Shown: positions 23,753 to 61,513 of the stretch, piece after piece | Layout: the number at the start of each line of letters is the position of its first letter | How positions within the stretch are numbered: position 1 is the stretch's first letter | Assembly (NCBI GenBank): GCA_965248765.1 | Contig: CBDFKF010000003.1 | Coordinates: forward strand, 653,777-717,776 | Source of the DNA: Alphaproteobacteria bacterium | Lineage (GTDB): Bacteria > Pseudomonadota > Alphaproteobacteria > VGEJ01 | Length of the DNA stretch: 64,000 nt | Direction of reading: 5' to 3' | The notes under the pieces: generated by a model | Seen by the model: only the letters and a program-made list of their open reading frames with translations | What the model was told of the DNA's origin: nothing | Database searches by the model: none | Position numbers and translations under genes: made by a program

Positions 23753-23771
23753 GGTCCTTGACCTGTCTTAG

Positions 23772-25850: not shown

Positions 25851-25894
25851 TACACCCTCTCCCTCGTTCGATCGTTTTTGGCAGTGCGATCAGA

Positions 25895-27553: not shown

Positions 27554-27590
27554 TGCCAGCTCTCTGCTGGTCCGCGCGTTGCGCCGGTCC

Positions 27591-35833: not shown

Positions 35834-35949
35834 CTTCGTCCTCCCTTGTGGTTCAACGCTCTTTTTCGCGAGGATACTTGGGCGGGCCGAGTGCCGTCAA
35901 ACTCGACCGCGCCCCGATGGCAAGGAAGCTGTTGCTAGCCCGAGTAGCC

Positions 35950-35975
35950 GCGCACTATGTTTGCTAAATGTGCGC
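35950..35975. promoter_or_regulatory. imperfect inverted repeat gcgcac-N14-gtgcgc in the divergent promoter region between the family-5 SBP gene and the hyuB-hyuA-hyuB operon
   Basis: Read directly from the sequence. It lies ~45 bp upstream of the hyuB ATG at 36018. Confidence 0.3.
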
Positions 35976-36017
35976 GCCAACAATTTCCGGGCGAGTTACC
36001 AACACAGGACGGTAGGG

Positions 36018-37769: not shown

Positions 37770-37774
37770 GCGGC

Positions 37775-39820: not shown

Positions 39821-39824
39821 TCGG

Positions 39825-42911: not shown

Positions 42912-44849
42912 TCATGCGGCGTCGGCGGCGAATTCCTCCATGCCGAGCCCGTTGAGGGTACCGGCTGTCGGCGTGCCCGTGTCTTTGTTCCAACCCTGGT
43001 AGCGGTAGTACTCATCGAGCATGGCCGGGAGATACGGCTCGATGCCCTCCTTTTCGGCCGGGCCGGTCTTGGTGATCTCCAAGAACCGGGGCGAGATATC
43101 GAGCTCGTCCTCGCGCTTGAAACCACGCCGGGCGTAGACCAAGCGCATCAAGTTGGCGACGCGCGCCCCGACCTCGAAGGCCTCCTTCTCGTCGAAGTCC
43201 TCCCAGCCGATGGTGTGGCGAAGGCTGTGGGTCGTGAACTTAATGGCACTCGGCACGCCCATGACGCCGAAGGAGCAGATGCCGAGTGTGTCCCAGAACC
43301 ATTTCATGAGCTGGGTGCGGTAGACACCCTCGACCTTGTCGACGGCCTCATCGAGGTTGCCCGCGATGCCCGGGGTGACCTTATCGTAGCCGAGGTCGCG
43401 CCGCAGGAACGTATCGGTTCCCCTCCCCTGGGTGGAGGCTCCGTAGCCGGACGTTATCTCGCAGAACCAGGCGCTCCACGCCGCGCGGTGGTCGTGCATG
43501 ACCGCGCCGCCGCCCTTCATATCGAGGATCTTGTTGCGGAGCTGTTCGGTGATGCCCTTCTCGGCGCCGACATTCTCGACCCACTTCTTGGGGCCGTCGA
43601 CGAACTTGGCACCGAAGCCCTCGCGGGCGACGGCCTGGTTGATCACCTCCATCGCCGATTCCCAGTTGCCCCAGGTGAAGTCGAGGCCGCCGGTATCCTG
43701 CTGGTTGAGGAGGCCTTCGCTATAGGCCTCGAAGGTGGCGCCCAGCATCGGGGCGAACTGGCCCATTTCGATGCCTAGGGAGTCGTACACATCGTTCATG
43801 ATGACGACGGCCATGGGGTCATCGACACCCATGATCGAGCCTGAGCCCTCAAGCGGCTCGCCGCCGCCACACTTGCTGCCGGTGAACCCTTTGTAGGGTC
43901 CATCCGTGATCTCCACGTCGTACGCGCACGAGATCTTGCAGTTGTACGAGGGCTGGGGCGTGATCTTCCACTTCGCGCAGGCCTCGACGTACTTGTTGGC
44001 GAACTCAACGCCCCAATCGGGGTCGGTCATGTTCTTGCCGATCACCCGCTTGTGCGCGCCGAAGGTCTGGTGGTAGTGGCGGGTGTTGCCTGCGTCCTGC
44101 ATCGCCTCGGCGACGGTGCGGTCAGCAGGGTTCTCGCTGCCGGGGAAGAGCTCCTTCTCCCAGTCGGTTGCGTTTTCGACCATCTTCGGCGGGTCGAACA
44201 GCGGCACCTTGCCGGTGCCCCGCACCGCGATAGCCTTGAGGTTTTTGGCCCCCATCGAGCTTCCCAGACTGCCTTTCCCGGCACCGTGGTTGCGGTCGTT
44301 CTTGATCATCGCTCCGGCGATGAGCGCCTCGCCGGCGGGACCGATGCAGGCGACGCTGATCTCCTTGTCGTCGCCGAGCTCGATCTTGATGCGGCGCTCG
44401 GTCTCGCGGGTGTCCTGGCCCCACACCTGGCCGGCGTCGCGAAACTCCACGTTGTCGTCGTCGATCCACAGATAGGTGGGTTTCGAGGCCTTGCCGGTGA
44501 AGATAATGCCCTGGTGCCCGGCGTGCTTGAGGCGGGCGGCCCAGAAGCCGTGGGTATGGCCCACAGCCGCCGAGTATGGCGTGATCTGGTGGTAGCCGAC
44601 GATGGTGACGTCGGAGGAGTTGACGGCGGGAGTCCCCGTCAGGGGACCGTTCATGAAGATGAGCGGCACATCCGGATCAGTGGACTTGCCCAGCGGCGGC
44701 GCCTCACGCAGCAGATACCACAGGCCCAGGCCAATGCCGCCGACATACTTGCGCAGTATCTCTTCGTCGGGGAGCGGTTCCCGAGTGACGGTCTCGTTGG
44801 TGAGATCCACACGCAAGATGTGCGGGCAGTATCCTCCGCGAATGGCCAT
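42912..44849 (-). CDS. aldehyde:ferredoxin oxidoreductase (AOR) family tungsten/molybdenum-pterin enzyme
   Basis: 645 aa. N-terminal ILRVDLTNE...YVGGIGLGLWYL, typical of the AOR N-domain. Two pterin-binding D-x-x-G-x-(D/E/C) motifs: YDSLGIE and DTLGIC, the Cys of the second being a 4Fe-4S ligand position. NCKISC Cys pair. Confidence 0.7.
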   Translation of the reverse strand: MAIRGGYCPHILRVDLTNETVTREPLPDEEILRKYVGGIGLGLWYLLREAPPLGKSTDPDVPLIFMNGPLTGTPAVNSSDVTIVGYHQITPYSAAVGHTHGFWAARLKHAGHQGIIFTGKASKPTYLWIDDDNVEFRDAGQVWGQDTRETERRIKIELGDDKEISVACIGPAGEALIAGAMIKNDRNHGAGKGSLGSSMGAKNLKAIAVRGTGKVPLFDPPKMVENATDWEKELFPGSENPADRTVAEAMQDAGNTRHYHQTFGAHKRVIGKNMTDPDWGVEFANKYVEACAKWKITPQPSYNCKISCAYDVEITDGPYKGFTGSKCGGGEPLEGSGSIMGVDDPMAVVIMNDVYDSLGIEMGQFAPMLGATFEAYSEGLLNQQDTGGLDFTWGNWESAMEVINQAVAREGFGAKFVDGPKKWVENVGAEKGITEQLRNKILDMKGGGAVMHDHRAAWSAWFCEITSGYGASTQGRGTDTFLRRDLGYDKVTPGIAGNLDEAVDKVEGVYRTQLMKWFWDTLGICSFGVMGVPSAIKFTTHSLRHTIGWEDFDEKEAFEVGARVANLMRLVYARRGFKREDELDISPRFLEITKTGPAEKEGIEPYLPAMLDEYYRYQGWNKDTGTPTAGTLNGLGMEEFAADAA

Positions 44850-45388: not shown

Positions 45389-45895
45389 CTACTTTTGGAT
45401 CACTCCGCAAGCGATGCGCGGCCCAACTCCCGGGTTCTCGCCGCGGGTGTCAGGCTTGTCATGAATGATGATGGCTGAGCCATCGCCGTCGAAGACACCG
45501 TCCATACCATCGCCAAGCGTCACGTTGGCATTCAGCACTTCCGCCTTCACTCGACCGTCGGCCGCGGCGTGGATATTCGGCATATCGCCGGCATGACGAC
45601 CTTTTGGGTTCTTGATGCCGTGGGCCTTGTCCGTGGGGTCGAAGTGCCCTCCGGCAGCCTTGAAGTCCGGCGTACAAGCGCCTCTTTCGTGGATGTGAAA
45701 TCCGTGGCCGCCCGGCGGTAGCCCCCGCAAATCGACCAGCACAAAGACGCCGGCGGGCGTCTCGGTCAGCGTCACGGTGCCGAGACCCTCGCCATCCGCG
45801 TTCTTCATCTCCGCCATCGCCTCCGCGGCGATGGCACCCGTCGATCCGAACGCCGAGATGGCGAGCGCCAGAATCGCGATTCGCAACGACAACAT
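45389..45895 (-). CDS. sodC: periplasmic Cu/Zn superoxide dismutase
   Basis: Signal peptide MLSLRIAILALAISAFG. Metal-ligand motifs GFHIHERGAC, GGHFDP, GDMPN, IIHDKPD and the disulfide Cys near the C-terminus. Confidence 0.85.
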   Translation of the reverse strand: MLSLRIAILALAISAFGSTGAIAAEAMAEMKNADGEGLGTVTLTETPAGVFVLVDLRGLPPGGHGFHIHERGACTPDFKAAGGHFDPTDKAHGIKNPKGRHAGDMPNIHAAADGRVKAEVLNANVTLGDGMDGVFDGDGSAIIIHDKPDTRGENPGVGPRIACGVIQK

Positions 45896-45963
45896 CCTAT
45901 CTCCCGTCGTCACTGTTCCTGCCGGCTGTTTTGTTGTCATGCTGTGTCCCTACTCGAGTGCGC

Positions 45964-47251: not shown

Positions 47252-48808
47252 ATGCGAATCGGCATCGATGTCGGCGGCACCAACACCGATGCAGCGTTGA
47301 TGGACGGCCTCAAGGTCCTCGCGTCCCACAAGACCCCGACTACCGCCGATGTCAGCACCGGCATCACGCACGCCCTGGAAGCGGTGTTGCGCGACTCCGC
47401 AGCGACGGCCGCCGCCATCGAGGCGGTGATGATCGGCACCACGCACTTCACCAACGCCTTCGTCGAGCGCAAGCGGCTGTTGCCGGTGGGCGCGATCCGG
47501 TTGGCGCTGCCGGCAGCGAGCGGATTGCCGCCACTCACCGACTGGCCGACCGATCTCGCTGATGCCGTGCGCGGTCATATCGCTATGGTCGAAGGCGGCA
47601 ACGAGTACGACGGCGCCGAGATCTCGCCTCTGGACGAGGGCGCGGTACGCACCGCCGCCGAAGACATGCGCACCGAGGGCATCCGGACCGTCGCGGTCTC
47701 TTCGATCTTCTCTCCGGTCAATGCGGGGATGGAGCAGCGCGCGGGCGAGATCGTCCGCGAGGTGCTGCCCGAGGCTGCGGTTTCGCTGTCCAACGAGATC
47801 GGCCGCATCGGCCTGTTGGAGCGCGAGAACGCGGCGATCATGAACGCGAGCCTTGCCGAGCTGGCCGAGCGCGTCGTCAGCTCGTTCCGCGAGGCGCTTG
47901 CCGGGCTTGGTATCGAGGCGCCGTTCTACATCAGTCAAAACGATGGCACGCTGATGAGCGCGGCCTTCGTCGAGCGCTATCCGGTGCTGACCTTTGCTTC
48001 GGGCCCCACCAACTCGATGCGCGGTGCCGCCTTCCTCGCTGGCGCCAAGGACGCGATGGTCGTCGATATCGGCGGCACCACAACCGATGTCGGGATGCTG
48101 ATCAACGGCTTCCCGCGCGAATCGGCGGTCGCGGTGGATATCGGCGGTGTGCGCACCAACTTCCGCATGCCCGACGTGCTGGCGATCGGCCTCGGCGGCG
48201 GCAGCCGGGTGCGCCAGAACGGCGCGCTCACGGTGGGCCCGGACTCGGTGGGCTACGAGCTGACTAAGGAGGCGCTCGTGTTCGGCGGTTCTACAATCAC
48301 CGCGACCGACATCGCCGTTGCGGCGGGTAATGCGGAGATTGGCGAGCGGGCGCGTGTCAGCAATCTGGGCGAGGATCTCGTCGAGCAAGCGGCCGCGATG
48401 ATCCACGACATGCTGGACGAGGCAGTCGACCGGATGAAGACCGCCGCTGGTGACCTGCCGGTGGTGCTCGTCGGCGGCGGCGCGATCCTGATCTCGCGCG
48501 ACATCAAGGGCGCCTCGGAGGTGATCGTTCCTGACCATGCCGGTGTGGCCAACGCGATTGGGGCTGCCATCGCTCAGGCCGGAGGCGAGGTCGACAAGGT
48601 CTACGCCTACGATCAGCTCGGCCGTGAAGGCGCTATCGCGGCAGCTCGTGAGGAAGCGAGCGAGCGCGCCGTCGAAGCGGGCGCCGATCCGGCCACCGTC
48701 GACATCGTGGACATAGAGGAGGTGCCGCTCGCCTATATGCCCGGCGGTTCGTGCCGTGTCCGGGTCAAGGCCGTGGGCGACCTCAGGTACCGCGGGATCG
48801 CGACGTGA
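47252..48808 (+). CDS. short (518 aa) hydantoinase/oxoprolinase-A-like ASKHA ATPase
   Basis: MRIGIDVGGTNTDAALM... and second half VDIGGTTTDVGML. Lacks about 170 aa relative to the full-length HyuA proteins of this window. Confidence 0.8.
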   Translation: MRIGIDVGGTNTDAALMDGLKVLASHKTPTTADVSTGITHALEAVLRDSAATAAAIEAVMIGTTHFTNAFVERKRLLPVGAIRLALPAASGLPPLTDWPTDLADAVRGHIAMVEGGNEYDGAEISPLDEGAVRTAAEDMRTEGIRTVAVSSIFSPVNAGMEQRAGEIVREVLPEAAVSLSNEIGRIGLLERENAAIMNASLAELAERVVSSFREALAGLGIEAPFYISQNDGTLMSAAFVERYPVLTFASGPTNSMRGAAFLAGAKDAMVVDIGGTTTDVGMLINGFPRESAVAVDIGGVRTNFRMPDVLAIGLGGGSRVRQNGALTVGPDSVGYELTKEALVFGGSTITATDIAVAAGNAEIGERARVSNLGEDLVEQAAAMIHDMLDEAVDRMKTAAGDLPVVLVGGGAILISRDIKGASEVIVPDHAGVANAIGAAIAQAGGEVDKVYAYDQLGREGAIAAAREEASERAVEAGADPATVDIVDIEEVPLAYMPGGSCRVRVKAVGDLRYRGIAT

Positions 48809-49893
48809 GGATCGGCCTCGAAGATCTGGAGGACTTTGCGCGCGGGGCAGCCTTCCTCGGCACCGGCGGTGGCGGCGATCCCTATATCGGACGGCTGACG
48901 GTGGAAAACGTGCTTCGAGCCGGACGCGACGTGGAGATAATTGACGCCGATGCCGTCCCCGACGATGCGCTCGTGATCCCCACCTGCATGATGGGAGCGC
49001 CGACCGTGTTCATCGAAAAGCTCCTGCGTGGCGACGAGACCAGCCGCGCTCTGCGCCGCCTCGAGGAACATCTGGGCCGGAAAGCGTTCGCCACCATGCC
49101 GATCGAGGCCGGCGGCCTCAATTCCACGATCCCGCTGGTCGTTGGCGCCCAGCTTGGTCTCCCGGTCGTCGATGCCGATGGCATGGGCCGCGCCTTCCCG
49201 GAGCTGCAGATGGTGACCTTCAGCGTCTACGGCATCCCGTGCTCGCCGCTGACCATCATCGACGAGCATGGCGAGTGCGTGATCGTCGAGGCGCGCAACA
49301 ACCACGCCTCCGAGTGGCTGGCGCGGGTGGTTTGCACGCGCATGGGCGGCGCCGCCCACGTCGCGCTCTATCCCATGAGTGGCGCTGACCTCAAACGCGC
49401 CGGCATTCGCGGCACCATGTCAGTGGCGCTCGAGATCGGCCGTGCGATCCGCCGCGCCCGCGAACAGGCGAACGATGTCTTCAATGCGCTGATCGAGTGC
49501 CTACGCGGCACTGATGGCTACGACTTCGCCAAGGTGATCTTCGACGGCAAGGTCGTCGATTTGCGGCGCGAGACGACGCGCGGCTGGGCCATCGGCTACG
49601 CGACCATCGAGGGCTTTGGTGAGTTCTCGGGCAATATGGAGATCACTTTTCGCAATGAGCACCTGATGGCCCGCCACGACGGGGTGGTTAAGGCGATCGT
49701 GCCGGATCTGATCTGCATCCTCGATCGCGAGACCGCCGAGCCCATCACCACCGAGGGGCTGCGCTATGGCCAGCGGGTGAAGGTGATGGGAGTGCGTGTG
49801 CCCGACATCATGCGCACGCGCGAGGCGATCGCGATTTTCGGGCCGGCGGGCTTTCAAATCGACGAGCCGTTCCGCCCTGTCGAGGAGCTCTGA
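48805..49893 (+). CDS. DUF917-family protein (partner of short HyuA-like proteins); GTG start overlapping the upstream stop
   Basis: About 362 aa, [31 protein letters not shown]... Assigned to DUF917 by recollection of the conserved HyuA-like/DUF917 gene pair. Confidence 0.55.
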
Positions 49894-49922: not shown

Positions 49923-49999
<77 letters not shown>

Positions 50000-50135
50000 G
50001 CGTGCCGACCATAGCAAAGGCTTCTGTCGGCTCGCAATTGGGACGACGGCGCATCCGATCGCGCGGCTCTCGCCGGAGGCCCTGGTCGCTGCCGATGTTG
50101 GTTGGCCGCGGCCGGCTGGTGGCCGGCGAGCCGCA

Positions 50136-51419
50136 CTACGAGATGTACACCGCGCTATCCCCAGCGGCCCGAATGTGCCCGGCCTTTACCGCATCCACCG
50201 TAACAGCCAGATCATTCAGGAACTCCTCGGCGACCGCGCCATGCGTATGATTGAGTAGCAATAACAACGCGGGCGGACGGCGCATCCGGCCCATGCGCCA
50301 GCCCTTGGCAAGCAAACCTTCCGCGACCGCGTTGATGTCCAGCTGCCCGGTGGATCCGATCGAGAAGTGACCGCCCTGCGGATCGCCGAGCACGCAAATT
50401 TCTTCGATCCCGCGGATGCCTTCGATGAACCGGCGCTTCGCTTTCAAGATCGCCCTGACGCGCTCGGCGTAGCCGTCAAACCCCAGATAGCGCATGACAG
50501 CCCAGGCCGACGCCACCGGACCGCCCGCGCGCGAGCCGACAAAGTTGAGCGTCGAGTACGCGCCGCCCGACCACGCATCGTGGTTGAACCGCTGATAGCG
50601 TTCGAGCGCGGCATCGCGCAACAGCAACGACGACGAGCCGCGATTGGCGTACCCGTACTTGTGCAGATCGACCGACATCGAGTTGACCGCGTCCACCCTG
50701 AAATCGAAGCATGGCACCGGCTCGCCCAGCGCCTCCACAAACGGCAGAAAGAAACCGCCGCCGCACGCATCGACGTGCATCCACAGGTCGTGCTCGGCGG
50801 CGATGGCGCCGAGCACCTCGATCGGATCCACCACCCCAATCGGGTAGGGCGGCGCGGAGCCCATGATCATCACCGTGTTCTCGTTGACGGCGGCCGCCAT
50901 CGCTGCGGGATCAGCCGCGTAGTCCGGTCCGACGGGGATGCGAACGACCTCGAGTCCAAGATGAGCCGCCGCCTTGCTGAACGCCGGGTGCGCCGATTCA
51001 GCGGCGAGTATTTCGGGCGCGGCGGCGCCGGGCTTGTGCTCTCTCGCCCAATCCCGCGCGGTTTTTACCGCCATCGTGATGCTTTCGGTGCCCCCGGTGG
51101 TAATGCTGCCGCCGGCCCCGGCCGGCGCGTTCAACATCTCCTTCACCATCGTCACGACCTCCGCTTCGAGGCGGGGCAGACTGGGGTAGAACGCAGGCCC
51201 GTAGATCTGATTGTCCCCCATGTAGAGGTTGTAGGCGTCGGCCGCGACGCTCACCACGTCATCGCCGGCGAAGTAGGAGGCCTGCAAGTTCTTCGGGTCG
51301 CGCCAATCGAGATCGCCTTTGCGCCCCGACACGAGCAGGTCTTGGATGTGCGAACGCGAGAGGCCCTCGCGGGCGAAGTGACGGTTGCTGATCTTGGCTT
51401 CGGACATGACTGGCTCCAT
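50136..51419 (-). CDS. PLP-dependent group-II decarboxylase (sphingosine-1-phosphate-lyase / glutamate-decarboxylase family)
   Basis: Starts at internal Met (MEPVMSEAKI) whose ATG overlaps the hyuB stop by 1 nt (TGATG). PLP-lysine motif SMSVDLHKYGYANRGSSSLLL resembles the S1P-lyase family DTHKYG. Confidence 0.75.
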   Translation of the reverse strand: MEPVMSEAKISNRHFAREGLSRSHIQDLLVSGRKGDLDWRDPKNLQASYFAGDDVVSVAADAYNLYMGDNQIYGPAFYPSLPRLEAEVVTMVKEMLNAPAGAGGSITTGGTESITMAVKTARDWAREHKPGAAAPEILAAESAHPAFSKAAAHLGLEVVRIPVGPDYAADPAAMAAAVNENTVMIMGSAPPYPIGVVDPIEVLGAIAAEHDLWMHVDACGGGFFLPFVEALGEPVPCFDFRVDAVNSMSVDLHKYGYANRGSSSLLLRDAALERYQRFNHDAWSGGAYSTLNFVGSRAGGPVASAWAVMRYLGFDGYAERVRAILKAKRRFIEGIRGIEEICVLGDPQGGHFSIGSTGQLDINAVAEGLLAKGWRMGRMRRPPALLLLLNHTHGAVAEEFLNDLAVTVDAVKAGHIRAAGDSAVYIS

Positions 51420-53203
51420 CAAGGGTGCGGCAACGTGCGGCGCCGGCGCGCGGCGGTCTCCGCTTGATCGACCTCGAGGCTGTCGGTCGCGACCTCGCCC
51501 GTGACGACGACGCCATAGACCTCGCGTGCCTGTTCGAGCGAGACGATGCGCTCCTCGATGTCGCGCTTGACCCGCGCCGGGTCGCGGGTCATCGGATCGC
51601 CGAAGCCGCCGCCGCCCTGATCGATCGCCCGGATCCACTCGCCCGGCTGCAGCGTCGTGTCAACATAGGCGGGCTGAGACTCCTCGCGGCCATCCGGGAG
51701 CACAAGGAGATTGGCGCCGAGATCGGCGTCGTGCCCGCCATGCACGCCGCGCGGCCGCTGTTCGACGATCCCATTGGTGATGTTGATCATCGTCATGGGA
51801 TCGGCGCGCGGGCCAAACACCACCTCGGTCGCCGGCCCGCCCCGAAAGCGCCCGGCACCCGCGGAACCCTCGATTACGCCGAGCGACCTGACCAGGATCG
51901 GAAAGCGCTGCTCGTCGATTTCCACGCTATCACGATAGAGAAGGCCCATGACCGGCATGAGGATCATCGAGACCATCCCGTCGGTCGTCGCAGTCGCCGG
52001 GCCGCCGCCGCCCATTAGATAGACCTGGCTGATATACGGCGCGCCGCCGCGCCGGGAATCGCGGCCCGAGACCACGCCGGCGCCGGCCGAGTTAACCCAA
52101 TTTCCCTGCGCGATGCCGAGGCCCTCGCCCAGCTTCGCGAAGGCGAGATGAACGAGGTTGATCAGGATATCGATCATCGGCGCCGTGGCGCACGAGCAGC
52201 TATGGGGAAATCGTGGGATGCCGGCGACACTGTTCTCTCGCAGTAGGACCCGGACGTGCCGGAAGGTCCCGGAGTTGTAGGGCACGTCCTCGAGGCAATT
52301 GAACACGCCCTGGGCCGCCGCCATGGTGGCCGTCGCCTCGGTCAGGTTCATGCCGGCCTCGACACAGTCGATATTGTCGCGCAGATCGATGGTGATCTCG
52401 CCGGCCTCGGCGTCGACCTCCAGGGTCACCGTAATCGGGATGCCGTCGGGCAGGAAAGGCTCGACCGGATCGTGTCCTCCGGCGACGGTGACGCGACCGC
52501 TCACCAGCTTCTTGATCGCCGTGACCGTGCGCCGCTCGGTGTAATCGAACCAGGCGTCGACGAAGCGCTGTACCGTCTCCATCCCGTGCGCGGCGATGAA
52601 CGCCTTGAGCCGTTGCTCGCCGATGCGCGCCGCGCTGATCGCTGCCAGGTGATCGCCGTACCATTGCTCGGGTACGCGGATGCGGCGCCGGCACATGCGG
52701 ATGATGTCGTCGACCTCGCGATAGTCGCGCTGCACCTGGACGCATGGGAAGATCAGGGCACCCTCCTCATAGACGTCCTTGGCCGGCGCAAAGTAGGTAG
52801 TCGGCACGCTGTTGCCGATGTCCGCCTGATGGCAGGTCGCGATCACGGTGAAGACGTGGACGCCGTCGTGGAACATTGGCACGAGGACGGCGTGGTCGGC
52901 CGGGTGGGTACCGCCGTCATAGGGATCGTTGTGCAGGAAGGCGTCGCCCTCTTTCGGGTTCGGCTGGAGGCGCGTCAGCGCGCGGGCCTGCAGTGTCGCC
53001 CCGTAGATATGGATTGGCACGCCCTCTGCGGCCGCGACCAGCTCGCCCTCGCGCGTCACGATAGAGCACGACATATCGCGCGCCATGCCGATCACCGAGG
53101 AGCGCGCGGTGCGGACGATCGTGTCCGTCATCTCGCGGACGATCGCTTCCATCCGGTTGGCCATGATCGCGAGCTGGATCGGATCGTAGTCGATTCGGCT
53201 CAT
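51419..53203 (-). CDS. hyuB: HyuB paralog 6 (start at internal Met MSRIDYDPIQ)
   Basis: 594 aa. QGGGGFGDP. Same subfamily as the pseudogene at 4814..6606. Confidence 0.9.
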   Translation of the reverse strand: MSRIDYDPIQLAIMANRMEAIVREMTDTIVRTARSSVIGMARDMSCSIVTREGELVAAAEGVPIHIYGATLQARALTRLQPNPKEGDAFLHNDPYDGGTHPADHAVLVPMFHDGVHVFTVIATCHQADIGNSVPTTYFAPAKDVYEEGALIFPCVQVQRDYREVDDIIRMCRRRIRVPEQWYGDHLAAISAARIGEQRLKAFIAAHGMETVQRFVDAWFDYTERRTVTAIKKLVSGRVTVAGGHDPVEPFLPDGIPITVTLEVDAEAGEITIDLRDNIDCVEAGMNLTEATATMAAAQGVFNCLEDVPYNSGTFRHVRVLLRENSVAGIPRFPHSCSCATAPMIDILINLVHLAFAKLGEGLGIAQGNWVNSAGAGVVSGRDSRRGGAPYISQVYLMGGGGPATATTDGMVSMILMPVMGLLYRDSVEIDEQRFPILVRSLGVIEGSAGAGRFRGGPATEVVFGPRADPMTMINITNGIVEQRPRGVHGGHDADLGANLLVLPDGREESQPAYVDTTLQPGEWIRAIDQGGGGFGDPMTRDPARVKRDIEERIVSLEQAREVYGVVVTGEVATDSLEVDQAETAARRRRTLPHP

Positions 53204-55275
53204 GCGCCAGTCTCGATGAGATAATTGCCGAGCACGGTCCGCGCCGCGCACGCGCCGGGATAGACCACGATGGTCGTGGTGGGTTCCTCAATGATCGCGG
53301 GGCCGGCCACGGTCATCCCGGAGCCAAGGTCGGCGCCGAGATAGATTGGCGTCTCGGCCTCGCCCTGCGGTTCGAAATAGGCCCGCGCGAGACGGTCCGA
53401 ACGCGGAAAGCTCGCGCCACACGAGGTCTCCGGGGCCATGACCGGCTTGTCGCGCAGCGCCGTCAGACGCACCCGCCAATTAATGCATTCAACCACGCCG
53501 CCGACCTCGCGCACCGCGTAGAGCCGCTCGTGGGTCCGGTGGAAGGCCTCGACCAGCGCGGCGAGATCATCCGCCGTTTCGATGCTCGTGCCGATCAAGG
53601 GCACCTCGATCTCCCATTGCTGATTGAGGTAGCGCGCCTCGACGAAGTAGTCGGTGCGCTGGTCGGTCACGCCGCGCGCCCGAAGCCCCGCCCCAAAGGC
53701 CTCACCCTGGGCGCGAAGCTGCCGCAGCACCGTGGCCACGGCTTCATAGTCGAAATCGGCCGAGTGGGCGTACTGGCTGGCGGAATACTCGGTGACAATG
53801 TCGGAATATTGCGCGCCGCACGCGCTCAGACCGCCTGCGGTGCGCGGCAGCAACACGCGGGCGCAGCCGAGCGCGCGAGCGATCGGCACGATCGTTAGGC
53901 CGGCCGCGCCGCCGCCGGCGACCAAAACGCTCTCGCGTGGATCCACGCCGTCGTTGACCGTGATCGCCTCTATCGCCTCGATCATCAGCTCGCCCGCGAG
54001 CAGCAGAATGCCGGACGCCGTCTCCTCGACGGTCTTGCCCATGGCGTCCGCGAGCGAAACGATGGCCCGGCCCGCGGCCGCAACGTCGAGCGGCATGCGC
54101 CCGCCGAGGAAATGTGCCGCATCAATGTAGCCGAGCACCAGAGCGGCGTCGGTCACCGTCGGCGCCGCGCCGCCCCGGCCGTAGGCCGCAGGCCCCGGCA
54201 CCGCCCCCGCCGATTGCGGTCCGACGCGCAACATGCCGCCCGAATCGAGCCAGGCGATCGAGCCGCCGCCCGAGCCGACGCTCCTGACGTCCACGGTTGC
54301 CATGCCGAGATTGTGCCCGACCCACTCCCCGAGCAGCCAGCTCTCGCGCGTGTACTTGACGAGCCCGGCGCGCACCAGGCTCACGTCGAAGGTGGTGCCG
54401 CCGGTATCGACGACGATGATGTCGCCGCCGAGCCCCTCGGCTTCGGCATAGGCCTTGCCAGCGACGGGCGCCATCGCCGGCCCTGACTTCACGGTATAGA
54501 CCGGCCGGGCGATCGCGTCGGCCGCGTGCAGCAGGCCGCCGGACGACACGCTCACCATCATCTCGCCCGAGAAACCGCCGGCGGCTAGATCGTCATGCAG
54601 CGTGCGCAGGTGCGCCTGCATCAGCGGTTTCAGCGAAGCATCGATCGTGGTTGAGGAGGCGCGCGGATACTCCCTGACCACGGGGTTGAGCGCGGATGAG
54701 AGGGTGTAGGGGATGTCCGGCAGAAGCGCTTCGATCAGCGCGCCGACGCGCCGCTCGTGCGCGTCGTTGACGATCGACCAGAGCAGACAGACCGCGATCG
54801 TTTCGATCCCCATCGCCGGCAAGTCGCGCAAGACGGCGCGCACGGCTTGCTCGTCGAGCGCGCGTTCGATCCCGCCCTCGGCGTTGATGCGTTCTGGGAC
54901 CTCGAACGTAAGCCGCCGCGGCACGTAGGGTGGCGGATTCTCCACATCGACCCGAAACGGATGATGCTTGCCGCCCTGCCTATAGAGCAGGATGTTGGGA
55001 AAGCCTTCCGTCGTGAGAAAGGCTGTCTTGGCGACTTTGCCCTCGACGATCGCATTGGCCGCCCGCGTCGTCGCGTAGATCAGAATGCCGGCCTCGCGCA
55101 GGAGGTCGTCGGGATCGCGCCGCAGTTCCGCTGCGGCATTGGCAAGCGCCGCGTACAACCCCTCGAAAGAGCGCTCGGGCGTGGTCAGCGCCTTGCCGAG
55201 GATGAGTCGGTCGTCGGCATCAGCCACGACAACGTCCGTGAAGGTCCCGCCGACATCGACAGCTATGCGAAGCAT
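53200..55275 (-). CDS. hyuA: HyuA 3
   Basis: 691 aa. MLRIAVDVGGTFTDVV... VDTGGTTFDVSL. Stop overlaps the hyuB start (ATGA). Confidence 0.9.
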   Translation of the reverse strand: MLRIAVDVGGTFTDVVVADADDRLILGKALTTPERSFEGLYAALANAAAELRRDPDDLLREAGILIYATTRAANAIVEGKVAKTAFLTTEGFPNILLYRQGGKHHPFRVDVENPPPYVPRRLTFEVPERINAEGGIERALDEQAVRAVLRDLPAMGIETIAVCLLWSIVNDAHERRVGALIEALLPDIPYTLSSALNPVVREYPRASSTTIDASLKPLMQAHLRTLHDDLAAGGFSGEMMVSVSSGGLLHAADAIARPVYTVKSGPAMAPVAGKAYAEAEGLGGDIIVVDTGGTTFDVSLVRAGLVKYTRESWLLGEWVGHNLGMATVDVRSVGSGGGSIAWLDSGGMLRVGPQSAGAVPGPAAYGRGGAAPTVTDAALVLGYIDAAHFLGGRMPLDVAAAGRAIVSLADAMGKTVEETASGILLLAGELMIEAIEAITVNDGVDPRESVLVAGGGAAGLTIVPIARALGCARVLLPRTAGGLSACGAQYSDIVTEYSASQYAHSADFDYEAVATVLRQLRAQGEAFGAGLRARGVTDQRTDYFVEARYLNQQWEIEVPLIGTSIETADDLAALVEAFHRTHERLYAVREVGGVVECINWRVRLTALRDKPVMAPETSCGASFPRSDRLARAYFEPQGEAETPIYLGADLGSGMTVAGPAIIEEPTTTIVVYPGACAARTVLGNYLIETGA

Positions 55276-55341
55276 GCGGGGCTCCCCCAGTTCCTTGGGG
55301 CAGTCTAGCGTCCCGTGCGGGAAACACTAAGATTGTGTCGG

Positions 55342-57563: not shown

Positions 57564-59402
57564 CTACTCGGCCGCTGTGGCAGCGAGGCGGCTGGCTCTA
57601 ACCCGCTCGCGCGCCCTCTCGGTAGCCTTTTGGTCGACATCGCCAGATGGTCCTTCGAGAACCACGCCGTAGACCTGACGAGCGACCGCCTCTGAGACCA
57701 CGCCGCTTGAGCAATCCTCGCGTACGGCATCCGCTTCACGCTCGAGCGGGTCGCCATAGCCGCCGCCGCCGTTCCAGCGGTAGTAGAGCGCGTCCTCGCC
57801 CGCGAGCGGATAGACTCCCCACGCTACCGATTGCTGCTCACCGGCCATGTCCTCGAGCGCTTGGGTGAACGGGTTGACGTTGCGGCCGGCCTCCGAGGCC
57901 TCATTGTTGTGGACCCAGACATAGCTGTTGGGCGCACCCGGATAGCCACCGGCGAGCCCATCGCTCATCGGGAATTGCGAGCCCTTGCCGGAGATGACGA
58001 AGCGCAGGCCGTCATCCGGCGAATCGTGGGGCACGACCGCAATCTCGCCGCCGGTGCCGCCGCGATACCGGCCCGGCCCGCCCGAGTCTTTCATGCGTCG
58101 ACGAAAGAGGTAGCGCACCGGAAACATCGCTTCGGTGGTCTCGACGTTGGCCATTCGCGTGATCGGGTTGGGCAGCTCACCGCCGACGTCGATCCCGTCG
58201 GCGAACGATCGGGCGCCGCCAGAGCCGGCAAAGGTCTCGGTCATCATGCCGATCGATTCGCTCCCTTTCTGGTTGCGTCCAAAGAGGAAGAGAGCGACGT
58301 GGTTGGCATGCCAGACGGCGCTTGTTTCGTGGCGATATTTGTCGCTGGCAGCAAGCATCTTGCCGATCGTCGTCACCGCCAGGTTGTTGACCGACTGGAT
58401 GGTGCCGACCGTTGCCGCCGAGACCGGCGCGGGCCGCCGGCAGTTCACGATGCTGCCCTCAGGCGCAATCATTTCGACCGGCCGCGTCAGCCCCTCATTC
58501 CAAGTGATGTCGTAGCAGAGCATCGGAAACAGCGGCGCGAAGATGCCGCCCCACGAGGCGAGACGGGTGCAGTTGAGACCATAGGGTGTTTCGGGGCTCG
58601 AGCCGGTGAGATCAAAAGTAAGTGAGTCTTCGGTCTTGGTCATTGCCATGTTCACACGGTAGACCTCGTCCTTGGCCTCCATGTACTGGCGCGCCTCCCA
58701 GCGTCCGTCCGGCAACTCCCGCAAGCGCCGCCGCAACAGCGCCTCCGATTGATCGATCAGCGTCCGGCCCGCTTCATCGACGGCCGCCGCTCCGTACTTG
58801 TCGATCAGCGCCAGCATGCGGTCCTTGGCAACGTTGTTGCAGGCGATCATGGAGGCGAGGTCAAGCGCGACCATCTCGGGCGAGCGCACCATGTTGAGGA
58901 TCGTATCCATGACGTCCTCGCGCATCTCGCCGCGATCGATCAGCTTGATACCCGGCGAGCTGAAGCCCTCGGTGTAGATGTCCTCGGAATCCGGGCTGAA
59001 GCCACCCGGCGCCAGAGCGCCGATATCGTAGACATGGACGAATGAGGCGCTGAAGCAGACCAGCTGGCCGTCGTAGTGAATCGGCGAAACCAAATAGATG
59101 TCGGAGGTATGAAGCGCGGCTGTGTAGGGGTCATTCAGCAGGAACACATCGCCTTCGTTGATCTTGCCGTCGAAGCGGAGCAGCACGGCCTTGCAGGCCT
59201 CGGCGGCGGCCGTCAGGTGATGGAGGTAGCCGACACCCCCCATCAATAGGGTGCCATCAGTGCGATAGAGCGAGACCATAAGGTCGTGCCCCTCGTTGGT
59301 GATGGCACTGCCCGAGACGTGCTTTAGCGTAATCACCGCCTCCTCGATGATGCGATAGAGGCGGTGGCGAATGATCGAGAAGGTGATGGGGTCCACGGTC
59401 AC
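57564..59402 (-). CDS. HyuB-like protein 7 (divergent subfamily; acetone-carboxylase-alpha-like position in operon)
   Basis: 612 aa. MTVDPITFSIIRHRLYRII... LLNDPYTAALHTSD... NGGGGYGDP. Confidence 0.85.
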   Translation of the reverse strand: MTVDPITFSIIRHRLYRIIEEAVITLKHVSGSAITNEGHDLMVSLYRTDGTLLMGGVGYLHHLTAAAEACKAVLLRFDGKINEGDVFLLNDPYTAALHTSDIYLVSPIHYDGQLVCFSASFVHVYDIGALAPGGFSPDSEDIYTEGFSSPGIKLIDRGEMREDVMDTILNMVRSPEMVALDLASMIACNNVAKDRMLALIDKYGAAAVDEAGRTLIDQSEALLRRRLRELPDGRWEARQYMEAKDEVYRVNMAMTKTEDSLTFDLTGSSPETPYGLNCTRLASWGGIFAPLFPMLCYDITWNEGLTRPVEMIAPEGSIVNCRRPAPVSAATVGTIQSVNNLAVTTIGKMLAASDKYRHETSAVWHANHVALFLFGRNQKGSESIGMMTETFAGSGGARSFADGIDVGGELPNPITRMANVETTEAMFPVRYLFRRRMKDSGGPGRYRGGTGGEIAVVPHDSPDDGLRFVISGKGSQFPMSDGLAGGYPGAPNSYVWVHNNEASEAGRNVNPFTQALEDMAGEQQSVAWGVYPLAGEDALYYRWNGGGGYGDPLEREADAVREDCSSGVVSEAVARQVYGVVLEGPSGDVDQKATERARERVRASRLAATAAE

Positions 59403-59403
59403 C

Positions 59404-61512
59404 TCACGAGAATTCGATCACCATGTTGCGATGTGCATCCATCTGACCGTGCTGGTGATCCTGCACGACGATGGTGGTGATCGGGGTGTGAATAACGGCA
59501 GGGCCGGCGACAACGTTGCCTGGTTCCAGCCGCTCGAAATCGTAGATCTCGGCAGGCGCAAGTCCGCCGCGTGCTTCGACGAAAATCTCGCGCCGACCAA
59601 TGCTCGCGCGCTTGGGATCGGCGCCCCCGAGCGGCAGCGGCTCGAGCTCGGGACGGTCCATCAATCCGCGCGCGGTCAACCGGAACATGGTCATTTCCAT
59701 GCCAGCGCCGCGATAAGCCGAGCCCTTGCCGAACTTGCGCTGATAGAGCGCCTCGAAGTCGTCGATGAGCTTTTCGAGCCCCTTTGAATCGAGCGGCGTC
59801 GCGGCCCGCACGGGCGTCGTCACCTCATGCACTTGTTTGCCGTACCGGAGATCGACCGACCAATCGAGCCGTATGCGGTCAGTCGGAAACCCCTCCTCTT
59901 TGAGCTGCTCAAGGGCAACCGTCCGCATCGGGGCGTAAATCTCATTCAACTCGTCGGCCGGAGAAGGCACAGGCAGTGTCTTGGTGACGGAATACTCGTG
60001 AACGATATCCGCTGAAACCAGGCCGAAGGCGCTATACACCGCGGCCGAGTACGGAACGATCACCCGTTTCACGTTTAGTTCGGCACCGAAGGTCCCGCAC
60101 AGCAAGGGGCAGGTGCCGCCGAAGGCGTGCAGCACAAAATCGCGCGGATCAAGACCGCGCTCGACCGTGATCTCGTGAATCAGGTCGGCGATCTGAGCGG
60201 CTGCAACGCGGTAGATGCCGAACGCGGCCTCGTCCACCTCCATGCCAAGCGGCCCGGCGATGCGCTCGGCAAACGCGGCCGCCGCCGCCGCGCGGTCGAG
60301 GGTGATCGTGCCGCCGAGAAAGGTGGCTGGGTCCATGTACCCCACCAGCAACAATACATCGGTCAGCGTCGGCTCGACACCGCCGCGCCCATAGCAAACC
60401 GGTCCAGGACTGGCGCTGGCACTCTGCGGTCCGACCCGGGGTATGTTGGTGTGGGGGTCCAGAGCAACGATGCTGCCGCCGCCGGCGCCGATCGAAACCA
60501 CCTCGATCTTGGGAGCGATGTAGTGATACCGCGCAACCATCGGCTCGCGCGCGTACTCCATCTCGCCGCCCTGGATGACCCCGACCTTGAAGGTTGTGCC
60601 GCCCATGTCGGCGGCGATGATATCGCGATCGCCCATTTGGTCGCCGAGGAACTGACTGCCGATAACCCCGGCGGCCGGGCCACTCTCGATCATGCCGACC
60701 GCCCGGTCCGCGGCTTCCACCGCCGGCAGCAGACCGCCGTAGCCCTGCATCACGAGAAGCGGGCCTTTGTACCCTTCGGCCGCCAACAGCTCGCCGAGAT
60801 CGGTCAGATAATCGCGCGAGATGCGCCCGGCGTAGGCGTTGATGACCGTCGTCGAGGTCCGCTCGTACTCGCCGGGGACTGGCGCGATATCGCTCGACAG
60901 CGTGACATAGGCATCGGGCGCTAGACGGCCAACGATCTCGCGCACGGCGTGTTCGTGGGCCGTATTGTAGAAGGACCACAAAAAGCACACGGCGATGGCA
61001 TCGACACCCTTCGACTCGACCAGATGGCTGACCGCGGCCTCGACAGCCGGCACGTCAAGCTCCTTGAGCACCGCCCCCTTGTAGTCGACCCGCTCCGGGA
61101 CACCGCGAATACACCCGGTCTCGACCAGCGGTGGCGGGCGCTCGGTGGCGATCGGATGTTTGACACGATCCTCGGATAGGCCTGCCCAGCGGCCGTAGGC
61201 GCCCCGCGTGATCAAGAGGGTATCCTCGAACCCTTCGGTAGTAATCAGGCCGGTCTTGGCGCCTTCGCGCGTCAGGATCGCGTTGTCGACGACCGTCGAG
61301 CCGTGCGCGAAGAGAGAGGTGCGGGCGAGCACTTCGGCCAGCGTCGTTCCCATCGAGTCGGCCGCCGAGACGATCGAGTCGATGACGCCCTGGGCGAAAT
61401 TAGGCGGTGTGGAGAGCGCCTTACCGACGTGAAGCGGCTGGCCTGCGGCGAAGACGATAGTGTCGGTGCAGGTGCCGCCGACGTCGGTCGAGACGATAAA
61501 CGGTGATGCCAC
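59404..61512 (-). CDS. HyuA-like protein 4 (GTG start 1 nt after the upstream stop; the ORF-track start at 61638 overlaps the upstream gene)
   Basis: About 703 aa. VASPFIVSTDVGGTCTDTIV... ADMGGTTFKVGVI. Its stop is followed 1 nt later by the next start. Confidence 0.85.
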   Translation of the reverse strand: MASPFIVSTDVGGTCTDTIVFAAGQPLHVGKALSTPPNFAQGVIDSIVSAADSMGTTLAEVLARTSLFAHGSTVVDNAILTREGAKTGLITTEGFEDTLLITRGAYGRWAGLSEDRVKHPIATERPPPLVETGCIRGVPERVDYKGAVLKELDVPAVEAAVSHLVESKGVDAIAVCFLWSFYNTAHEHAVREIVGRLAPDAYVTLSSDIAPVPGEYERTSTTVINAYAGRISRDYLTDLGELLAAEGYKGPLLVMQGYGGLLPAVEAADRAVGMIESGPAAGVIGSQFLGDQMGDRDIIAADMGGTTFKVGVIQGGEMEYAREPMVARYHYIAPKIEVVSIGAGGGSIVALDPHTNIPRVGPQSASASPGPVCYGRGGVEPTLTDVLLLVGYMDPATFLGGTITLDRAAAAAAFAERIAGPLGMEVDEAAFGIYRVAAAQIADLIHEITVERGLDPRDFVLHAFGGTCPLLCGTFGAELNVKRVIVPYSAAVYSAFGLVSADIVHEYSVTKTLPVPSPADELNEIYAPMRTVALEQLKEEGFPTDRIRLDWSVDLRYGKQVHEVTTPVRAATPLDSKGLEKLIDDFEALYQRKFGKGSAYRGAGMEMTMFRLTARGLMDRPELEPLPLGGADPKRASIGRREIFVEARGGLAPAEIYDFERLEPGNVVAGPAVIHTPITTIVVQDHQHGQMDAHRNMVIEFS

Positions 61513-61513
61513 C

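Follow-up and report, generated by a model that had tools for sequence, protein, structure and literature searches.

A narrowly distributed hyuA–hyuB operon coupled to a sphingosine-1-phosphate-lyase-like gene, with a possible role in cyclic-amide catabolism

Three tightly coupled genes

The 64-kb stretch of alphaproteobacterial DNA analysed here (the window) contains four hyuA and nine hyuB genes, and the genomes concerned are very rich in hyu paralogs. One hyuA and one hyuB gene form a unit with a gene for a pyridoxal phosphate (PLP) enzyme that resembles sphingosine-1-phosphate (S1P) lyase, or SPL (Table 1). The three reading frames reported by an earlier sequence-only reading were all confirmed, on the minus strand, as were its ATGA and TGATG junctions: at the first, the hyuA stop TGA (53202–53200) is overlapped by the hyuB ATG (53203–53201), an arrangement kept in the related loci L083 and L089, and at the second, the hyuB stop TGA (51421–51419) shares its A with an ATG at 51419–51417. 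The PLP gene has a further in-frame ATG 12 nt downstream of this one with a GGAG motif 5′ of it, and both the motif and the alternative start are again kept in L083 and L089. Translation from the ATG that shares a base with the hyuB stop gives a protein of 427 aa, whereas translation from 51407 gives one of 423 aa, the length of the database copy (P0001); the gene calls of all relatives use the equivalent of this second start. The 51407 ATG may be the real start, in which case the gene would begin 11 nt past the hyuB stop and would not overlap it, but the three genes are tightly coupled whichever start is used. We rejected a 500-aa PLP reading frame that reaches back to 51638 and restores an N-terminus like that of the Symbiobacterium S1P lyase StSPL, because in the sister lineage this frame contains in-frame stop codons; the frame of HyuB itself is backed by alignment to the caprolactamase subunit CapB up to residue 575.

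A tRNA-Arg gene downstream of the unit is the sole island-like feature. A promoter and terminator scan found no promoter-like site and two terminator-like sites, both within genes and fewer than in shuffled sequence. We rejected the idea of a mobile cassette, since there are no direct or inverted repeats of note around the unit and no integrase or transposase gene adjoins it in the window.

Table 1. Genes and translation signals of the unit (window positions)
Feature	Position	Strand	Description	Basis
hyuA	53200..55275	(-)	691-aa ATP-binding (ASKHA) subunit, putative ATP-dependent cyclic-amide hydrolase	Pfam
hyuB	51419..53203	(-)	594-aa metal-binding subunit	Pfam Hydantoinase_B
SPL-like PLP enzyme gene	50136..51419	(-)	fold type I, group II decarboxylase fold	Pfam Pyridoxal_deC
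Alternative PLP-gene start	51405..51417	(-)	GGAG (51417–51414), 6-nt spacer, ATG (51407–51405)	sequence inspection
hyuA ribosome-binding region	55276..55288	(-)	GGGGGAG, 6 nt before the hyuA ATG	sequence inspection

Family placement and active-site residues

HyuA matches the Pfam families Hydant_A_N (146 bits), Hydantoinase_A (238 bits) and Hydant_A_C (51 bits), and HyuB matches Hydantoinase_B (403 bits), all above the gathering thresholds. The ATP-binding motifs DxGGTxTD, DxGGT and GxxPGP, defined for the ASKHA-type A subunit in PMC8453981, are intact in HyuA as DVGGTFTD (residue 7), DTGGT (290) and GAVPGP (357), and the metal tetrad of HyuB is likewise intact, with D43/H100/D103/H125 aligning with the Zn tetrad D41/H99/D102/H124 of CapB. 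These matches place HyuAB in the ATP-dependent hydantoinase/oxoprolinase/caprolactamase superfamily. Among characterized proteins it comes closest to caprolactamase (6yra) and a fused N-methylhydantoinase (7hk5): the best solved relative of HyuA is the caprolactamase subunit CapA (6yra_A, 380 bits), and a hydantoinase relative scores 345 bits, as against 263 and 184 bits for carboxylases. HyuB is 28.5% identical to CapB, and the caprolactamase equivalogs NF050156 and NF050157 score 530.6 and 258.7 bits, both below the 1000-bit cut-off. The sequence-only reading had assumed a 5-oxoprolinase-type reaction, which nothing in these comparisons identifies, as no 5-oxoprolinase model or structure ranks above caprolactamase or N-methylhydantoinase for HyuAB. 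At the positions of the CapB pocket, HyuB has neutral or hydrophobic residues and gains neither an Arg nor a Lys that could pair with a substrate carboxylate, a mapping of low confidence at this level of identity.

The third protein matches Pfam Pyridoxal_deC (95 bits), as the earlier reading had expected, and carries the motif DLHKYGYA, whose lysine, K254, binds PLP. The likeness to the S1P-lyase subfamily that had been noticed in this motif is real. Its best solved relative is StSPL (3mad; E 1.8e-94, 320 bits), to which it is 44.1% identical over 410 aligned residues, and the solved relatives that score above 160 bits are all S1P lyases; the archaeal tyrosine/aspartate decarboxylase MfnA and bacterial GadB have the Pfam domain in common with it, but their structures match at only E 4e-29 (105 bits) and about 3e-16 (62 bits). 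The best NCBIfam model is that of MfnA (TIGR03812), at 222.8 bits against a cut-off of 299.4, and neither glutamate decarboxylase (GAD, TIGR01788; 92.2 against 380.4 bits) nor DABA decarboxylase (NF052646; 52.6 against 900 bits) reaches its cut-off, so that the label ‘decarboxylase’ first given to the gene was an assumption. By similarity the enzyme clusters with the lyases, the outcome that the earlier reading had itself named as telling against its proposal, and we assign it by homology to an SPL-like branch and not to classical GadB.

We compared the enzyme with StSPL, human SGPL1, yeast Dpl1p and Burkholderia S1PL2021 using the S1P-lyase signature residues tabulated in StSPL numbering (PMC6148460, Table 3), and 12 of the 14 are kept. 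The PLP cup and PLP sandwich are preserved, as all eight PLP-binding residues (G168, T169, H310, S353, C276, H201, D274 and K311) have identical counterparts (G110, T111, H253, S296, C219, H144, D217 and K254). In the set that binds the substrate phosphate (Y105, H129, A103, N126 and K317), Y49, A47 and N70 are kept, whereas Tyr73 stands in for His129, with one residue inserted, and Arg260 for Lys317, so that both altered signature residues fall in the phosphate pocket. Tyrosine takes the place of His129 in 109 of 118 family members, and an active Burkholderia S1P lyase has Gln there; Lys317 is present in all five of the lyases listed. The C-terminal ‘substrate entry’ tyrosine Y482 corresponds to Y425 and is Tyr in 116 of the 118. 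The protein begins at StSPL residue 57–61, about 56 N-terminal residues being missing, and has neither a membrane anchor nor the Nt-FLEX segment, which carries little weight because active Burkholderia S1P lyases are similarly short.

Conservation in a narrow clade

The whole unit, with proteins of 691, 594 and 427 aa and identical junctions, is present in L083, L089, L092 and L094, and in part in L093, L095 and L097–L100, where the contig or the fetched flank ends within it. Besides the window, at least 10 metagenome contigs, from two lineages at 87% nucleotide identity, carry it, and the lineage of the window apparently has it on four further contigs (five in all); its carriers are a few related marine bacteria. 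Identical junctions recur in independent assemblies, so the three genes have not come together by chance. When the window is set against the sister lineage, blastn homology is restricted to 50125–55287 and the flanking genes are unrelated, with alignment similarity at the upstream border of the shared block (55276..55288) beginning at GGAGAGC/GGGGGAGC. The dN/dS values against L089 are 0.128 for hyuA, 0.133 for hyuB and 0.163 for the PLP gene. The three genes are a real operon, as the earlier reading had supposed; it is co-inherited, with purifying selection on each gene, and is confined to a narrow clade.

In the sister lineage, a hydantoin-racemase-like gene lies directly downstream of the unit, and a class-III omega-aminotransferase gene faces it (NF004767, 697 bits, above the cut-off of 517). 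Neither catalytic cysteine survives in the racemase-like protein, whose gene is missing in the window lineage as well as in L083 and L095. Neither gene has a homolog in the window, which places both outside the core unit. In a third lineage (L090), orthologous hyuAB genes (85–88% amino-acid identity) are followed by a different paralog of the short SPL-like family, 40–45% identical to the window enzyme and 56–63% to P0111; the pairing of hyuAB with this family has therefore been kept or re-created. The assembly there is from long reads at 3x, and this paralog has two or more frameshifts; it may be a pseudogene, or the frameshifts may be sequencing errors.

Conservation of the triad thus held in two close lineages and one variant, but not further afield. 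Homologs of either partner at 54–66% identity lie in other contexts, and the unit was absent around those at 60–66%. Of 80 loci that encode a PLP-enzyme homolog in species-representative genomes, four have hyu genes within 10 kb, leaving 76 without, and the coupled arrangement occurs in none, so we rejected a broad conservation of the unit. No hyu genes were found near the homologs P0003, P0004, P0111, P0021 and P0015, and the only such neighbour of P0007 is a fused and distantly related HyuAB, encoded on the other strand at a distance of about 3 kb. A HyuB ortholog in L091 (64% identity) is followed by a 376-aa protein that is not a PLP enzyme and has no match in Pfam, NCBIfam or PDB. HyuAB-type genes lie within 10 kb in 5 of 14 lineages whose enzyme has Arg260, as against one or two of about 70 with Lys or His; since hyu paralogs are so dense in these genomes, such looser associations may be due to chance and the Fisher test is confounded.

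A possible route for a cyclic amide

We regard the unit as an undescribed, lineage-restricted variant of lactam-catabolic operons, and as a modest lead rather than a discovery. The chances seem to us evenly poised that it is a lineage-restricted catabolic operon for a cyclic amide in which HyuAB opens the ring and the PLP enzyme acts next, and we infer the following sequence of steps. HyuA, with the ATP site, and HyuB, with the metal site, would form an ATP-dependent lactam or hydantoin-type hydrolase of the caprolactamase/N-methylhydantoinase kind, and opening of the ring would free a carboxylate and a primary amine. This amine would be bound as an external aldimine by the tandemly translated PLP enzyme, whose counterpart of the S1P-lyase phosphate pocket, re-tuned by the His-to-Tyr and Lys-to-Arg changes, would probably hold an anionic group of the product remote from the amine, most likely the carboxylate just formed. 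The enzyme would then cut the bond between the amine-bearing carbon and a substituent. A carboxylate would leave as CO2 (decarboxylation) and a hydroxyalkyl group as an aldehyde (retro-aldol cleavage of the S1P-lyase type), and in either case a GABA-type omega-amino acid would be left for transamination. A substituted ring must be assumed, because the omega-amino acid from a plain lactam would leave the PLP enzyme nothing to cut off. For the reaction itself, decarboxylation is the leading candidate at a little under an even chance, retro-aldol cleavage is a possibility of lesser weight, and some other chemistry is unlikely. The boldest proposal, to which we give clearly less than an even chance, is that the SPL-like enzyme could be a soluble retro-aldol lyase and not a decarboxylase, with a carboxylate pocket replacing the phosphate pocket through the two substitutions, and that ATP-dependent opening of a hydroxyalkyl-substituted lactam might supply it with a beta-hydroxy amino acid to be split into an aldehyde and an omega-amino acid.

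It is improbable, in our judgement, that HyuAB is a 5-oxoprolinase producing L-glutamate for a PLP enzyme that decarboxylates it to GABA. The superfamily includes oxoprolinases, GABA is an isostere of phosphoethanolamine (the amine that S1P lyases release), so the Arg260 pocket could conceivably hold a gamma-carboxylate, and an omega-aminotransferase gene is close by in the sister lineage; yet HyuAB shows no similarity specific to 5-oxoprolinases among the models and structures compared, the residues mapped with low confidence to the CapB pocket include no new cationic one, and the third protein falls far below the GAD cut-off. Glutamate, moreover, is a central metabolite usable without decarboxylation. 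A reversed or parallel order of steps seems a long shot. The PLP enzyme would act first on an amine-bearing ring such as an alpha-amino-lactam, or the amine that it produces would cyclise, and HyuAB would then open the ring; the order of the genes need not be that of the reactions, a free primary amine is all that the PLP enzyme requires, and a racemase-like gene follows the unit in the sister lineage, but the product of that gene lacks its catalytic cysteines and the gene is missing from several carriers, the window lineage among them.

We consider it very doubtful that the enzyme is a genuine lyase of long-chain-base phosphates whose place behind hyuAB is metabolically meaningless. The 44% identity to StSPL and the retained signature residues, including Y105, N126, S353 and Y482, fit such a lyase, and active Burkholderia S1P lyases are about as far from StSPL, have a similarly short N-terminus and lack His129. 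Set against this are the co-inheritance of an exact three-gene block amid unrelated flanks, the replacement by a same-family paralog in L090, the location of both altered residues in the phosphate pocket with Tyr for His129 nearly throughout the family, the lack of lipid-metabolism genes among the annotated neighbours (41.6–63.3 kb of the window) and the occurrence of the PLP family widely among bacteria in varied amino-acid-type contexts. It is scarcely credible that HyuAB resembles acetone or acetophenone carboxylase in using ATP to carboxylate or phosphorylate a compound that then passes to the PLP enzyme, since HyuA scores higher against lactamase and hydantoinase than against these carboxylases and the unit contains no gamma or epsilon subunit gene, even though the superfamily and metal tetrad are shared and most of the phosphate-binding pocket is kept.

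Marine and soil bacteria have many short SPL-like PLP enzymes (one search returned 1755 relatives, and 591 stretches were confirmed among species-representative genomes), and HyuAB-type ATP-dependent amidases are numerous and mostly orphan, with thirteen such genes in this window. The coupled pair offers a handle on the substrates of both families, as the amine released by HyuAB should be the substrate of the PLP enzyme. The component families are ordinary and no long-standing question hangs on the unit; what might be gained is a new route of lactam breakdown and a way to ask how the group II decarboxylase fold sets the choice between decarboxylation and retro-aldol cleavage. Were the retro-aldol reading with a carboxylate pocket true, it would provide the first physiological non-sphingolipid role for short bacterial SPL homologs as well as a new route of lactam catabolism.

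In line with the earlier reading, no paper describing the three-gene unit was found in the literature searched. The closest known system is the caprolactam gene set of Pseudomonas jessenii, in which the caprolactamase CapAB is followed by a PLP-dependent omega-aminotransferase (PMC8453981, PMC6061476). CapAB is an ATP-dependent lactamase of two subunits whose ATP motifs and Asp-His-Asp-His metal site recur in HyuAB, and there, as we propose here, a PLP enzyme handles the amine from ring opening. The systems differ in sequence, given the low HyuB–CapB identity and equivalog scores below the cut-offs for both subunits, in gene order (B-A there, A-B here) and in the PLP enzyme, which is a class III aminotransferase in P. 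jessenii and here is SPL-like, with the group II decarboxylase fold. The S1P lyases, for their part, share fold and most signature residues with the third protein, whose gene stands in an operon with a predicted lactamase and not in a lipid-metabolism context. The hyuABC(E) genes of Pseudomonas sp. NS671 encode an ATP-dependent hydantoinase, a carbamoylase and a racemase (summarised in PMC8453981), and resemble the unit in HyuA/HyuB-type ring opening and in the racemase-like gene of the sister lineage, which differs in its missing cysteines and its absence from the window. Hydantoin hydrolysis yields N-carbamoyl amino acids, which are unable to form an aldimine and so unusable by the PLP enzyme, and the unit lacks an N-carbamoyl-amino-acid amidohydrolase; these points count against the route proposed above.

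A further parallel is with the nmpABCDEF genes for N-methylpyrrolidone degradation in Alicycliphilus. HyuA/HyuB-type proteins reportedly open a gamma-lactam there and the ring-opened amino acid is handed on to an amine-processing enzyme, which is said to be an amine oxidase, whereas in the present unit the downstream enzyme is the SPL-like PLP protein.

Layout and conservation of the three-gene unit

The three minus-strand ORFs found in this region by the ORF listing, hyuA, hyuB and a gene for a PLP enzyme, constitute a real, undescribed and lineage-restricted operon of ordinary families. They are tightly coupled: the TGA that ends hyuA (53202-53200) and the ATG that begins hyuB (53203-53201) run together as ATGA, and the hyuB stop TGA (51421-51419) shares one base with an ATG (51419-51417) as TGATG, both as the sequence-only reading had described. 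Its further claim that the PLP gene overlaps hyuB stands only as far as the presence of this second motif, as a later in-frame ATG (51407-51405), preceded by GGAG at a 6-nt spacing, is the start used in the database copy of the enzyme (P0001, 423 aa) and in all gene calls in relatives. The PLP gene either overlaps hyuB by one base or begins 11 nt past its stop, and coupled translation is possible either way. A 500-aa version of the PLP ORF reaching 51638 in the ORF list was rejected, as the sister lineage has stop codons in that extension. No sigma-70-like promoter for the operon was detected in a scan of the region, and a terminator scan gave only two terminator-like matches, both within genes and fewer than in shuffled sequence.

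The unit is co-inherited. Four loci of a sister lineage (L083, L089, L092 and L094) carry it in full (691/594/427 aa) with identical ATGA and TGATG junctions, and six others (L093, L095 and L097-L100) carry it in part, since the contig or the retrieved flank stops short. At the amino-acid level the sister HyuA is 90-91% identical to that of the window, HyuB about 90% and the PLP enzyme 84-85%; nucleotide identity is 84-88%. In cluster look-ups the three proteins were on contigs of matching length, five in the window lineage and at least six in the sister lineage. When the 64-kb window was compared with the sister loci by blastn, only 50125-55287 aligned, that is, the three genes and about 12 nt on each side. 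The flanks are unrelated: recQ lies upstream and tRNA-Arg (CCG) downstream in the window, whereas the sister lineage has an alpha/beta-hydrolase gene upstream and, downstream, a hydantoin-racemase-like gene and a convergent class-III aminotransferase gene followed by rmuC, def and fmt. Similarity to the sister lineage ends exactly at the tRNA gene, where neither an integrase nor repeats were found in the window. Values of dN/dS between the window and L089 (0.128 for hyuA, 0.133 for hyuB and 0.163 for the PLP gene) indicate purifying selection on all three genes. The unit is thus conserved, but narrowly; conservation in other genomes, a check proposed by the sequence-only reading, holds for the window and sister lineages, and beyond the clade the pairing breaks up.

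The racemase-like protein resembles hydantoin and allantoin racemases (3qvk, E 1.9e-8), but Thr and Ser replace both catalytic cysteines, which makes a two-thiol racemase unlikely. In L083 and L095, whose sequence is 97% identical to that of L089, its gene breaks off after 51 nt and a class II aldolase family gene follows; this marks a recent rearrangement at the edge of the unit and makes the racemase-like gene dispensable to the unit in this lineage.

In a third lineage (L090), hyuA and hyuB are orthologous to the window pair (85% and 88% amino-acid identity), and the sequence diverges at the end of hyuB, where another short SPL-like family member follows with its own AAGGAGG ribosome-binding site. 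This paralog shares 40-45% identity with the window enzyme and 56-63% with its homolog P0111; two or more frameshifts interrupt it in the 3x long-read assembly, such that it may be decaying or mis-sequenced. With that caveat, the exchange of one family member for another behind hyuB speaks for a functional tie of SPL-like enzymes to this HyuAB clade. Directly upstream of the L090 pair lie a urocanase gene, also split in this assembly, and a histidine-ammonia-lyase-type gene.

Coordinates of the unit and of associated features in the window and in loci of relatives
Feature	Sequence	Position	Strand	Remark
hyuA	window	53200-55275	-
hyuB	window	51419-53203	-
PLP-enzyme gene	window	50136-51419	-
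recQ	window	from 55315 at earliest		divergent, upstream of operon (gene annotation)
tRNA-Arg (CCG)	window	49923-49999	-	136 nt downstream of PLP gene, same strand
hyu cluster	window	22076-29255	-	B-B-A-B
hyu cluster	window	35742-41582	+	B-A-B
hyu cluster	window	57564-63316	-	B-A-B
HyuB-like gene	window	4823-6570	-	split over three frames
HyuA-like and DUF917 / S-Me-THD-like pair	window	47252-49893	+
AFOR	window	42912-44849	-
Cu/Zn superoxide dismutase	window	45389-45940	-
Racemase-like gene after unit	L092	8315-9106	+
Racemase-like gene after unit	L089	13132-13923
Racemase-like gene after unit	L097	11336-12127
Divergence point of the 97% identical copies	L083	5254-5461		versus L089
Divergence point of the 97% identical copies	L089	13068-13182		versus L083
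Urocanase and histidine-ammonia-lyase-type genes, then hyuA-hyuB and PLP paralog	L090	5083-13200		same strand as hyuA-hyuB
SPL-like gene with neighbours (ADP-forming acyl-CoA synthetase, then MaoC dehydratase; fused HyuAB; upstream genes)	L086	10001-17948
376-aa protein	L091	9830-10960	+	2-nt gap after hyuAB

Family placement and active sites

In Pfam profile searches HyuA (691 aa) shows three hydantoinase-A domains and HyuB (594 aa) matches Hydantoinase_B from end to end. HyuA contains DVGGTFTD, DTGGT and GAVPGP, motifs of the type that defines the ATP site in the HyuAB superfamily (PMC8453981), and HyuB keeps the Asp-His-Asp-His metal tetrad (D43, H100, D103, H125) that mutagenesis found essential in caprolactamase. 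Their best solved relative is the P. jessenii caprolactamase (6yra; 380 and 198 bits), followed by a fused 1288-aa N-methylhydantoinase (7hk5; 345 and 157 bits), and both outscore the acetophenone and acetone carboxylases. The top NCBIfam matches are the caprolactamase equivalogs at 531 and 259 bits, far under the 1000-bit cut-off, and HyuB is only 28.5% identical to the caprolactamase subunit CapB. HyuAB would accordingly be placed, by these comparisons, among the hydrolase-type members of the superfamily, nearest to caprolactamase and N-methylhydantoinase.

The PLP enzyme matches Pyridoxal_deC, the profile search that had been proposed for it. Among solved structures it is closest to sphingosine-1-phosphate (S1P) lyases, with the Symbiobacterium enzyme StSPL first (320 bits, E 1.8e-94; 44.1% identity over 410 aligned positions), then human SPL (270 bits), yeast Dpl1p (257 bits) and Burkholderia S1PL (245 bits), well before MfnA (105 bits) and GadB (62 bits), in agreement with the sequence-only reading that it is SPL-like rather than GadB-like. 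The same reading had called it a group-II decarboxylase, a name in keeping with the Pyridoxal_deC match; since the lyases are closest and the enzyme stays under the cut-offs of the curated decarboxylase models (MfnA, 223 of 299 bits; GAD, 92 of 380), "decarboxylase" is here a family label and not a proven activity. When the S1PL signature table (PMC6148460; PMC10243590) was mapped onto the enzyme, all PLP-binding residues were kept, as were the head-group residues A103, Y105, N126 and S353 and the C-terminal Tyr482. The differences lie at two positions: where StSPL has His129 the enzyme has Tyr73 and one inserted residue, and Arg260 stands in for Lys317. The first position is Tyr in 109 of 118 family members, and the second is Lys in 49, Arg in 44 and His in 25. 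Compared with StSPL, the enzyme is also about 56 residues shorter at the N-terminus; Burkholderia lyases that are active have a comparably short N-terminus and are likewise without His129. By these alignments it belongs to a large, uncharacterised clade of short SPL-like enzymes with an anion pocket unlike that of true S1P lyases.

Candidate chemistry of the unit

We propose that HyuAB would open a cyclic amide using ATP, giving a free amine and a carboxylate, and that the SPL-like enzyme would capture the released amine as an external aldimine. The bond cleaved by S1P lyase occupies the stereoelectronic place of the C-alpha-carboxylate bond in decarboxylases of the same fold, and the phosphate-bearing arm remains on the cofactor (PMC10243590; PMC6148460). 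Phosphoethanolamine, the amine product of the lyase, is an isostere of GABA, so that exchanging His for Tyr and Lys for Arg could adapt the phosphate pocket to a carboxylate.

Decarboxylation of a ring-opened product that bears an alpha-carboxylate, the type of model put forward earlier, has close to an even chance of being right; in its favour, the SPL-like family occurs in amino-acid-type genomic contexts, carboxy-lactams are the more abundant in nature, and an omega-aminotransferase gene adjoins the unit in the sister lineage. Retro-aldol cleavage of a beta-hydroxy amine, with an aldehyde leaving, favoured by the enzyme's homology to lyases, is possible, though we lean against it; both readings lead to the same product class. 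The specific pathway of the sequence-only reading, with a 5-oxoprolinase-type HyuAB yielding glutamate and then GABA, is improbable: the closest relatives are caprolactamase and N-methylhydantoinase, and the HyuB residues matching the CapB caprolactam pocket are neutral or hydrophobic with no extra Arg or Lys, a slight hint against 5-oxoproline or another carboxylated lactam, taken from an alignment too remote (28.5% identity) to rely on. A hydantoin as such is an unlikely substrate: it would yield an N-carbamoyl compound, which is unable to form an aldimine, and a carbamoylase is missing.

Among known systems the caprolactam pathway comes closest in its logic, CapAB being followed by a PLP aminotransferase; the unit differs in its PLP partner, its gene order and its only remote kinship to CapAB. 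The N-methylpyrrolidone cluster, in which a HyuAB-type lactamase is followed by an amine oxidase, has a similar logic. By score cut-offs the unit's proteins fall outside the caprolactamase equivalog and the curated MfnA and GAD families, and the PLP enzyme does not match the S1P lyase substrate pocket. We found no description of the unit in the literature searched, in line with the earlier claim of novelty; that reading's observation of the unit was confirmed, and its interpretation is supported in part only.

Pairing outside the clade and neighboring genes

PLP homologs at 54-66% identity occur beside EamA, Rieske and class-IV aminotransferase genes, beside HalD/PhyH-type dioxygenases, or alone. 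In one case (L086, 60% identical) the homolog and the beginning of a gene for an ADP-forming acyl-CoA synthetase overlap, with a fused HyuAB about 3 kb off. That fused protein (1207-1340 aa) converges on the SPL-like gene, synthetase and MaoC set, and genes for creatinase/M24 and M55 peptidases and a DAO-type oxidase lie upstream. Next in distance among the hyuAB orthologs is that of L091 (61-64% identity, HyuB 64%); the gene behind it encodes a 376-aa protein that matches nothing in Pfam, NCBIfam or PDB, and an ABC transporter of the branched-chain-amino-acid type is encoded upstream. Among 80 species-representative loci, 4 have hyu genes within 10 kb and none has the coupled form. L003 has the order PLP, TetR, hyuA, hyuB, and in L042 and L043 a hyuA-hyuB-BKACE set is convergent to the PLP gene. 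HyuAB is found nearby in 5 of 14 lineages with Arg260 versus 1-2 of about 70 others (Fisher p ~3e-4), an enrichment that is only suggestive because the genomes are hyu-rich.

The window itself holds 4 full hyuA and 9 full hyuB genes and one frameshifted copy. The other clusters have a 2:1 or 3:1 B:A ratio, unlike simple A+B lactamases and recalling the multi-subunit acetophenone carboxylase. The closest paralog of the operon HyuB (~42% identity) is a split HyuB-like gene, an apparent pseudogene or sequencing error, with no hyuA detected beside it at E 1e-5. Converging on the operon across the tRNA gene are genes for a shortened HyuA-like protein (518 aa, without the C-terminal domain) and then a DUF917 / S-Me-THD-like protein, which is only remotely related to thiohydantoin desulfurases (100 bits, cut-off 450); L086 has another gene of the DUF917 / S-Me-THD-like family close to its SPL-like gene. 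Elsewhere in the window, genes for an aldehyde:ferredoxin oxidoreductase (AFOR, of the tungsten-type family) and a Cu/Zn superoxide dismutase are separated by about 0.5 kb, an unusual mix of oxygen-sensitive and aerobic-type functions.
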